NCBI GenBank assembly: GCA_963815195.1
Contig: CAWFGE010000022.1
Span: 160,001-224,000 of the forward strand
Length of the DNA: 64,000 nt
Direction of reading: 5' to 3'
From: an uncultured Planctomycetaceae bacterium
Lineage (GTDB): Bacteria; Planctomycetota; Planctomycetia; Planctomycetales; Planctomycetaceae
Of the stretch, positions 23,227 through 24,962 are shown piece by piece. Both the position numbers and the translations under genes were made by a program. Position 1 is the stretch's first letter; every line of letters starts with the position of its first letter. The notes under the pieces were generated by a model that worked only from the letters and a program-made list of their open reading frames with translations, made no database searches and was not told the DNA's origin.

Positions 23227-23852
23227 CTAGGGTTGATTTTGAGGCTGGATTGCCGTCGATTCTGTCGAATCGATGTTTCCCTCATCGACGAACATATCGA
23301 TTTTCAAATAAGGTTCCCCGGATTCAGGATCGCAGGGCAATTTTGTCGAGGCAAGCTGGAGCAAGTTCAATTGATTGAAGAGAACTTCATTAAACGTTTT
23401 GACGACGCCCCGCGCAATCGATTCATCATTTTCCGCCAATTCCGCCATGCGGCAAAGTTCGCGATGAATCGCAAAGGCGTGAGACTTGATGCGATCCAAA
23501 CCGGTGAGACCTCGATTCGAAAATCCCACGTGCAAGTCCCGATCCATCGCCCGCGCGTAGGCTTCCAATTCGCTGATTCGCAGCTCGCCGTCCTCGCCGT
23601 TCTCGATCTTGGACACTCGGCTCTGCGAACAATCGAGTTGTTCCGCGATCTCCGCTTGGGAAATCCCCTTCGCCGCGCGCAACGCATGCAAAGCCTTCAC
23701 CAGCCGCGCTTCGAAATTTGTTCTTCGAGTGCCCGGTTGAAAGCCTCATCGTCCGAGATGTCGCGAATCATCTCCCGAACCGAGTTGTACTGCGGATTTT
23801 CAGAAATTGAGTTGTCGGCCGCGGTAATCTGACCGCGGAAACGTTGAGCCAT
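23227..23852 (-). CDS. Xre/HigA-like HTH antitoxin or regulator (frameshift near 23705)
   Basis: LRAAKGISQAEIAEQLDCSQSRVSKIENG HTH. The N-terminal part MAQRFRGQ..EEQISKR is in the adjacent frame, with an AGGAGA RBS before ATG 23852. Confidence 0.8.
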
Positions 23853-24090
23853 TGCGATTCTCCTGTGACCCGGAGCGGGTGCTTCAATGGGGCCGCGGTC
23901 ATTCAACCGCGGAAAGTTGCAGTCGTTAAGGCCCTGCACAGCCTTTGTCTTGAGATCCAACCGTCAACCACCAATCCAACACTTGGTGGTTGGTCGTTAT
24001 GAGCTTCAACCGGCCGTGGTCATTCAACCGCGGAAACAATTTTGTGGATGCCGAAGCTCTTCATGGCATCCTGTTCAATGGGGCCGCGGT
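23807..24090 (-). CRISPR. Degenerate mini CRISPR array with type I-G-like repeats; no cas genes in the window
   Basis: Best copy 23881..23916 reads CTTTCCGCGGTTGAATGACCGCGGCCCCATTGAAGC on the minus strand (36 nt, CCGCGGT/ACCGCGG stem, ATTGAAGC 3' end). Other copies: 24003..24037, 23807..23842 (degenerate) and a half copy at 24072..24090. Gaps are 38, 86 and 34 nt. Confidence 0.75.
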
Positions 24091-24121
24091 TTTTGGATAA
24101 GAAAAGTGCGTTCAGCCGCCA

Positions 24122-24517
24122 TTATTCTTCCAACGACTCATCCGATTTTTCCTGCACTTCGGAAGCTTTCTCCGCTAACAAGGAATCGACAAAGTGTTTA
24201 CAGAATCGGATGTCGTCGGATTGGCTGTTTTTGTCGCCCAACGTGATCAAATGCAAAGTTTCTGATTCCTCGTCCGGATAAATGTAGAGCCGGAATTCTT
24301 TAAGGTGGGATCCTTTTCCCTTTTGGTCGATCGCCAAAACCCCAGACGGTTCGGGATGAATAAATCCTCGGTGGATTTGCCCGGAGGACGCGCCGGCCTC
24401 GAGGCATTTGAAAAATGTGTCCAAGTTGTCAAAAACATTCTGCAACTCGCGAGAATGTTTCTTCTGGTGCTTTTTCACCCGTTTTTCAATATCGGGCGTG
24501 GGCGACAACTTCCACAT
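24122..24517 (-). CDS. RelE/HigB-like toxin
   Basis: 131 aa; KEFRLYIY..LHLITLGDKNSQSDDI resembles the GDKxxQxxDI motif of HigB-type killers; toxin-first order with a downstream HTH gene. Confidence 0.7.
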   Translation of the reverse strand: MWKLSPTPDIEKRVKKHQKKHSRELQNVFDNLDTFFKCLEAGASSGQIHRGFIHPEPSGVLAIDQKGKGSHLKEFRLYIYPDEESETLHLITLGDKNSQSDDIRFCKHFVDSLLAEKASEVQEKSDESLEE

Positions 24518-24962
24518 GGGATTATATCATAGAGGAATAGTTTCGGCAATAAAAACACCGAAATCTCCAAAGATTATTCTTTTTTGGAATATGTTGTCAA
24601 TGACTGATGGATTGTAATAATCCCCGAAGAACCCATCTCAGCAGGAATATCTGCCATGTCCAAGCCAACCTTCCCGCGGCGTTTTTCAACCGTAGCGGAT
24701 TTTGAACTGCTGACAGGCGGCCGGTCCTTCGATGTGGTCCAGGTTGCCCCTGAAATTCATAATCCTTAAAACTCCCCAAGAGATTGCCCCCGGCGATGCG
24801 GAACTCATCATCCGTGTTGAAGATGAGGTGATTCATCGGCAGATTGCTCTGCCAAATGGATCAACCCCAACAATGCGCCGAGTCCCCATCCAACGTTATT
24901 AATTGGAAAAATCGGCAAAACGCGACATAACCATAGATCAGTTGCGAGGCAGTGTCAATTTC

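Follow-up and report, generated by a model that had tools for sequence, protein, structure and literature searches.

The toxin–antitoxin module closest in layout to the one considered here is HigBA2 of Vibrio cholerae, in which, as far as the available part of the report goes (PMC5416850), the toxin gene comes first, the toxin has a RelE fold and the antitoxin has an N-terminal segment followed by an XRE helix-turn-helix; it is the N-terminal segment of HigA2 that neutralises the toxin. CRISPR repeats outside main arrays have also been linked to toxin–antitoxin genes. The regulatory mini-arrays of Shmakov et al. (bioRxiv 10.1101/2023.03.03.530964; PMC10120712) comprise a few degenerate repeats and, in the accessible parts of those texts, sit ahead of the cargo in cas loci, have a spacer that matches the cargo promoter, and form a class from which repeats overlapping ORFs were excluded. 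CreTA and a CRISPR-repressed protein toxin (PMC8501985, PMC10097628, bioRxiv 10.1101/2024.01.05.574328, each available in part) combine toxin-linked ectopic repeats with a possible addiction logic, the antitoxin in these systems being a guide RNA that acts on transcription. The repeat exaptations in the available portion of a review (PMC8730458) all act as guide-like RNAs, and a literature search, thin on subscription papers, returned no report of an array located between the genes for toxin and antitoxin, nor of a spacer serving as a start.

In the window, the 64,000-nt stretch of DNA analysed here (G000:C22:160001-224000), a decayed type I-G mini-array (24090-23817, minus strand) divides a HigBA-type pair. 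Like the arrays of Shmakov et al. (as described in the accessible part of PMC10120712) it consists of few degenerate repeats and is linked to a toxin–antitoxin pair, but it lies between the two genes and away from cas genes, no target was found for it, and a spacer and a repeat would serve as ribosome-binding site and coding sequence. In contrast to what the available CreTA texts describe, the antitoxin here is a protein, and CRISPR control, if any, would be exerted on the mRNA. It is reasonably probable that an orphan piece of a type I-G array was exapted in cis, providing the initiation region of the antitoxin gene and an N-terminal extension of its product, with no control by Csb2 today. 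Comparison with a sister species would then show the locus before and after a spacer and a repeat came to provide the ribosome-binding site, the start codon and the N-terminal peptide of a gene that is probably indispensable while its toxin is intact. Non-coding repeats that become protein are familiar from the Rickettsia palindromic elements, which insert in frame into genes; those are REP-like repeats and not CRISPR units.

The genes and their setting

The source genome, G000 (8.9 Mb, 25 contigs, 94.6% complete), has most of its relatives with the same genes in Planctomycetota. The locus, on the minus strand, belongs to a small variable island preceded by a gene which we take to encode agmatine deiminase. 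Among genomes of the same genus, G002 lacks the island, G003 has a kinase-like gene there (labelled from its translation), and G001 combines this gene with remnants of the array and with the antitoxin gene, but has no toxin gene. In the window, what remains of the kinase-like gene is followed by promoter-like DNA and then by the toxin gene, the array and the antitoxin gene. Only its first codons, at 24638-24660, are left there; the gene is longer in G001 and G003. The AT-rich stretch that follows (24521..24600, minus strand) has two sigma-70-like promoter candidates, one at 24600-24573 with 11/12 consensus positions and one at 24549-24521 with 10/12 and a TG; predicted promoter-like sites upstream of the toxin gene number 5, against 1.4 +/- 1.1 in shuffles.

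The toxin-like gene (24122..24517, minus strand) is intact and encodes 131 amino acids. Its 95 homologues, of which the closest are at 86-96%, have no representative that was found in viral contigs, and Gp49 occurs in 20% of the members among its Atlas neighbours. The predicted model (pLDDT 90) has a RelE/HigB fold, with RelE, YafQ and HigB2 as best Foldseek matches at probabilities of 0.99-1.00 and E-values of 2e-3 to 5e-3, none being at E<=0.001; TIGR02683 gives a weak match (E 0.035). The antitoxin gene (23227..23852, minus strand) encodes an XRE helix-turn-helix (PF01381, E 7e-12) preceded by a conserved N-terminal segment, its predicted model is of low confidence (pLDDT 66), and in the assembly it has a one-base frameshift near 23705. 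Toxin precedes antitoxin in 49 of 51 foreign loci, in the remaining two of which no antitoxin was found; a further locus, L047, was excluded as a spurious match, and several of the 51 are duplicates. With a toxin of predicted RelE/ParE fold upstream of a helix-turn-helix antitoxin, and the two kept as a pair, the module would by layout and fold be of HigBA type, with putative activity. It differs from HigBA modules in the toxin family, which matches no Pfam or PADLOC family, in an additional C-terminal helical region of the antitoxin, and in the 265-nt array that interrupts the junction. The antitoxin start is at -164 to +116 nt from the toxin stop in the 49 foreign loci, and at +314 in the window.

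A type I-G mini-array at the junction

The pieces of the array, all on the minus strand, are taken here in the direction of the operon. The first repeat (24072..24090) is a 3′ half only, with 17/19 nt canonical, and is followed by a spacer (24038..24071) with weak similarity to its G001 counterpart (shuffle p 0.02) and by a 35-nt second repeat (24003..24037) whose 3′ part is degenerate. Next is an 86-nt unit (23917..24002), probably two spacers with a collapsed repeat, the 3′ part of which is weakly common to G001 (p 0.015); within it, at 23963-23995, is a perfect 10-bp hairpin without a U tract. Repeat 3 (23881..23916) is a canonical type I-G repeat and the last spacer (23843..23880) has 38 nt, with canonical arrays of the genome having spacers of 35-39 nt; it cannot be aligned with its 18-nt G001 counterpart (p 0.85). 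The terminal repeat (23817..23842) consists of the 5′ 26 nt only, of which 22 are canonical; its 7-bp stem is retained (z -3.3), its 3′ end is missing, and it is common to G001 and lies inside the antitoxin reading frame.

Because repeat 3 matches 35/36 nt of the repeat in two canonical arrays of the same genome, one on contig C7 and one on C15, the window repeats are not a chance resemblance. In repeat 3 the 7-bp stem is followed by 4 nt and an 8-nt handle, as expected of a 36-nt I-G repeat, and the same geometry is reported for Csb2 cleavage in the available part of bioRxiv 10.1101/2022.08.08.503147; the array is therefore sense to the operon. As the pieces were picked by similarity, no selection on the repeats is claimed. 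A fragment of a type I-G array would have entered a HigBA-type operon, between its toxin gene and its antitoxin gene.

That the mini-array makes crRNA-like guides leading Cascade to the toxin promoter, as in CreTA and cargo mini-arrays, is very unlikely indeed. Mini-arrays near toxin–antitoxin cargo are widespread according to the accessible text of bioRxiv 10.1101/2023.03.03.530964, and one with I-G repeats is known from G284, in a csb2 locus, where a spacer has a 13-nt seed at a nearby promoter-like site with a TTA PAM. The window array, however, is downstream of the toxin gene and far from any cas locus, I-G Cascade genes were not found in G000, and the best local seed of its spacers, 9 nt with an AAA PAM, falls within the toxin gene and not at its promoter; nor was a promoter seed found at the comparable junctions of G838 and G056 described below. 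Spacer 3 has no exact 19-mer match in viral contigs, the best blastn match of the spacers to 50,697 phages has an E-value of 3, and in their own genome the spacers have no match with fewer than 10 mismatches in 34 nt. The G284 array (L174:1280-1560 in G284:C132) precedes a BrnT-like and HTH pair, and seems to be a crRNA-like regulatory array, its subtype being one not named in the available part of the same preprint.

The ancestral antitoxin start and its loss

The first-pass annotation of this DNA had pointed out that the toxin stop overlaps an ATG at 24122 (TAATG) and that the frame so opened ends at the TGA at 24077-24075 in the half repeat. Both are as described, and the resulting 15-codon ORF (24075..24122, minus strand) reads MAAERTFLIQKPRPH. 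The accompanying proposal, that the array had separated this original start from its gene, does not agree with the homologues. When N-termini of homologous antitoxins are aligned, the initiating Met of the six closest full-length ones (P0136 MPKTPQY, P0137 MADNPTY, P0138 and P0133 MTDNVHY, P0098 MTKNSQY and P0099 MTENVQY) coincides not with TAATG but with the Ile of ISENPQY in the window, that is, with ATT at 23807, behind the terminal repeat. All of 49 distant loci have an ATG or GTG at -9 to +2 codons of the ancestral Met position; the window has no start nearer upstream of it than -15 codons, where ATG 23852 is.

The G001 sequence makes the same point. There the terminal repeat (21/26 nt canonical) is directly followed by GAGGATCCT-ATG with an intact GAGGA-N4-ATG, and at the corresponding place the window reads GACAACTCA-ATT, with no gap and 6/12 bases different; the coding part downstream is 91% identical. 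The 12 nt at 23805..23816 (minus strand) are thus where the ancestral ribosome-binding site and start codon have decayed, the ATG now being ATT at 23807-23805. Since G001 has both the terminal repeat and an intact start, while the window has a decayed start and no gap, the array came first, the gene at that stage retained its start behind the hairpin, and that start was lost in the window lineage only. The array itself did not cut off the start, as the first-pass annotation had supposed, for in G001 the start stayed intact after the array had arrived. The terminal repeat and repeat pieces are shared by the two genomes, and the insertion would predate the split between the window species and G001; the antitoxin at first retained its own ribosome-binding site and ATG behind the terminal hairpin, the arrangement that G001 has today.

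With homologues and G001 placing the start at 23807, TAATG was rejected as the main lost start. Its frame is in phase with the antitoxin gene today, and deleting the 265 nt between the two copies of ACCGCGGCC puts it out of frame; a one-base error in an A-run would restore the phase, and an additional coupled start in the ancestor is possible.

A probable present start in the last spacer

An AGGAGA at 23864-23859, 6 nt and ATG 23852 are present within the last spacer as first noted, and RFRGQITAAD is indeed read across the terminal repeat. The same annotation held that this repeat had kept its stem and had lost a 3′ end that contained a stop. Stem and missing end are as stated, but the stop is not in the ATTGAAGC end: in the antitoxin frame of the canonical repeat it is in the loop (F-R-G-stop). 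The loop of the window repeat differs, and with that the stop is gone; the G001 loop differs at the same two bases, so the loss of the stop predates the new start.

The proposal that the start was rebuilt from the last spacer appears supported, the old ribosome-binding site and ATG being lost and 23852 having the best Shine–Dalgarno sequence. ATG 23852 is the nearest in-frame start upstream of the old site and its frame is open as far as the frameshift. On a crude score of pairing with this genome's anti-Shine–Dalgarno sequence it was the best of six candidates in the window, at -7.4 kcal/mol compared with -4.0 for TAATG, -2.9 for the ATG of MIRD, -1.7 for ATT 23807 and -0.7 for GTG 23700, though a pairing of -7 is reached by 10% of 1000 random ATGs and by 18% of 600 reference starts. 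Accessibility, also crudely scored, is highest at ATG 23852. As the toxin is intact a complete antitoxin is expected, and it is most likely made from ATG 23852, which would make it 15 residues longer with residues 4-12 encoded by the repeat. In the window lineage, then, a last spacer with a strong Shine–Dalgarno sequence and an in-frame ATG, together with a stop-free terminal repeat, would have taken over initiation while the old signal decayed. How often a spacer offers such a signal can be gauged from 540 spacer readings, five of which have a Shine–Dalgarno sequence with an ATG, three in the needed frame; all three are antisense, and none of the 270 first-orientation readings has a Shine–Dalgarno sequence with an in-frame open ATG. 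A chance origin of the start signal needs luck or later selection.

A different reading, that the antitoxin gene is decaying or is started downstream, at MIRD or at the non-canonical ATT 23807, and that the upstream ATG is a coincidence of the captured spacer, is quite unlikely. It gains from the frameshift in this assembly, from a very close homologue in another assembly, P0097, that was called from MIRD, and from the instability of the island, evident in the loss of the toxin gene from G001 and the deletion of the kinase-like gene in the window. Yet MIRD and ATT 23807 both have poor Shine–Dalgarno pairing and accessibility, and a start at MIRD would forgo conserved residues upstream of it, among them a nearly invariant S-V motif whose V is the same in all of 38 sequences; by analogy only, the N-terminal segment is the part of HigA2 that neutralises the toxin (PMC5416850, available in part). 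The toxin gene, moreover, is intact with promoter-like sites. Relative to G001, 14 of 282 sites at codon positions 1-2 differ, against 13 of 58 fourfold sites.

This assembly does contain the frameshift, which the first-pass annotation wanted verified. A near-identical contig of the public run X1 (151 nt, no other difference; one contig, depth 3) does not: it has one more G at 23705 and with it reads K-R-R-L-V, as homologues P0137 and P0133 do. The frameshift is absent in G001 as well. Over 7.8 kb there are five isolated indels relative to G001, and the three that are covered by a third genome are not shared; this three-genome check did not show the assembly to be indel-rich. Split cas1 frames on contig C3 do point to assembly error. 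The frameshift is probably an assembly error or a strain-level change, and the antitoxin gene is probably intact.

Cas genes

Profile searches for csb2 and csb1 found neither in any of the four genus genomes, G000 to G003, of which G000 is 94.6% complete, and tblastn of control Csb2 and Csb1 proteins against them gave a best E-value of 0.26. In four control genomes with the same repeat family csb2 was found in all (three over the cut-off) and csb1 in three, and the repeat family co-occurs with these genes in other genomes. The cas loci of G000 are two of I-MYXAN type and one of type III with a reverse transcriptase, and they have other repeats. No active type I-G system, with cognate csb2 and csb1, is thus found in G000, and the window array is an orphan in the present assembly, keeping in mind that csb2 could be unassembled. 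Because there is no csb2 in the genome, the array would now act in cis, as 5′ leader and coding sequence, and not as a source of guides. For the same reason a present-day translational switch operated by Cas6 binding, as envisaged in the first-pass annotation, finds no footing even though the hairpin has the published Csb2 geometry. Such a switch is possible only as an ancestral function, and as such it gains from the recurrence of the layout.

Similar layouts in other genomes

An exact 17-mer of the repeat is present in 17 of 300 family genomes, and inspection of 10 low-copy repeat loci distinguished six real repeats from four chance matches in coding DNA. The search for the repeat brought up G838:C214 (L176:983-2217), in which a toxin-like gene is followed by four degenerate I-G repeats, each with a different loop, and an XRE gene; the last repeat is truncated exactly before the handle, the Csb2 cut position, and GGAG-N8-ATG of the XRE gene comes next. 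The toxin-like gene encodes 151 amino acids, has a ‘plasmid stabilization system protein’ as Atlas neighbour, and shares no detectable sequence homology with the window toxin (hhalign probability 0.1). G838 has csb2, on another contig. Its toxin family occurs in 13 of 251 genomes, five of the 13 having csb2. Twelve of the junctions are plain and one, in G056 (G056:C430:20049-20144, L219), has between toxin and antitoxin two hairpin units 66 nt apart. These repeat-like units match related repeats at 25-26/36 positions and resemble another repeat family, one that occurs in phage mini-arrays, and G056 probably has a layout of the window type. Short TTGAACAC-like tandem copies stand after the two units and before the start codon.

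The truncated-terminal-repeat pattern was also found in three of 121 genomes of another family and in 12 viral stretches, none of them a further toxin–antitoxin case, with neither a second I-G handle nor toxin–antitoxin genes in the nearby context. In 19 chosen genomes it picked out the C7 array end and two variant repeats in G565 besides the three known cases. Selection cannot be proved from three cases. A purely accidental insertion explains poorly that the layout recurs in G838 and probably in G056.

The recurrence bears on a tentative and rather unlikely alternative for the origin of the arrangement, one compatible with the new start at 23852, in which selection keeps, or once kept, the mini-array as a control element. 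Csb2 would cut and bind the repeats in the bicistronic mRNA and release the initiation region of the antitoxin from the terminal hairpin, so that antitoxin supply depends on the Cas protein, in a post-transcriptional parallel to CreTA; once csb2 was lost, G001 would have deleted the toxin and the window genome would have moved the antitoxin start upstream. The layout is indeed shared with a different toxin–antitoxin family in G838, which has csb2, all junction arrays are sense to the mRNA, and G001 is without csb2 and without the toxin. Csb2, in the accessible text of bioRxiv 10.1101/2022.08.08.503147, cuts 4 nt 3′ of the 7-bp stem and keeps the hairpin (KD 43 nM). When the hairpin is removed in silico, opening the start region costs 2.3 instead of 12.5 kcal/mol in G001 and 2.8 instead of 12.8 at the old site of the window, but the gain is small in G838 (10.8 to 8.4) and G056 (6.3 to 5.8), and any shortening of the RNA lowers the figure; a Csb2 cut in G001, moreover, would leave a 7-nt leader and clip the Shine–Dalgarno sequence. 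There are only three independent cases, that of G056 being tentative and with csb2 not found in a genome that is 85% complete. The repeats vary in sequence and decay, arrays are present in none of the 49 loci of the window's own family (no repeat-like match longer than 10 nt), and the window genome has I-G repeats at sites unrelated to toxins too. A broader version is likewise doubtful: that Planctomycetes have repeatedly placed I-G repeats in toxin–antitoxin mRNAs, with Csb2 setting the antitoxin supply, and that the window locus is an escape from this. If true, it would be a Cas6-dependent post-transcriptional addiction or anti-anti-CRISPR device, in which after the loss of csb2 a spacer took over initiation and the control hairpin became coding, the sister species having deleted the toxin instead. 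The mini-arrays at toxin–antitoxin junctions in three lineages make control by a Cas6-type enzyme via mRNA testable, and should there be none, pieces of I-G arrays would still be seen to move and to land inside genes and operons.

Origin of the array and other repeat sites

Off-target integration, which according to Nivala et al. 2018, as summarised in the available part of bioRxiv 10.1101/148544, yields orphan arrays or neo-CRISPRs and duplicates the local site, gives small arrays remote from cas genes, like that of the window. The difference is that window repeat 3 hardly departs from the canonical repeat, and for that reason a piece of a real array seems to have moved. The 9-mer ACCGCGGCC is at both ends of the window array, beginning the first repeat and ending the matching part of the last one, which fits insertion of an array piece at repeat-like microhomology. 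Deletion is another source of half repeats, as in G001.

Two orphan I-G arrays of G000, G000:C7:38884-39265 (L002) and G000:C15:142189-142634 (L001), split one NOV_C/DUF3883 gene at TTCAAC, and have the same end pattern as the window array, around CGTTGAA. The halves correspond to profile positions 1-37 and 39-89 of NOV_C (DUF3883) and abut exactly on 5/5 intact homologues; the two are on separate contigs, and each has an IS21 transposase and a serine recombinase nearby. In G010 (L175:1440-1590 in G010:C228), where csb2 was not found, a three-piece I-G mini-array starts with a 3′ half and ends with a 5′ half, has TCCGG at both junctions, and is near an integration site.

Solitary repeats occur as well. 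An I-G repeat variant at G000:C21:220650-220685 (L093) has a promoter-like site on one side and the start of a conserved gene on the other; at this position G001 and G003 have other DNA. A 3′ half repeat in G001 (L082:1498-1520; G001:C10:298940) is next to a multi-copy intergenic element that also adjoins the C15 array of G000. In viral contigs (L235 and L236), mini-arrays of two or three repeats are situated between phage genes, with the last repeat directly before the next start.
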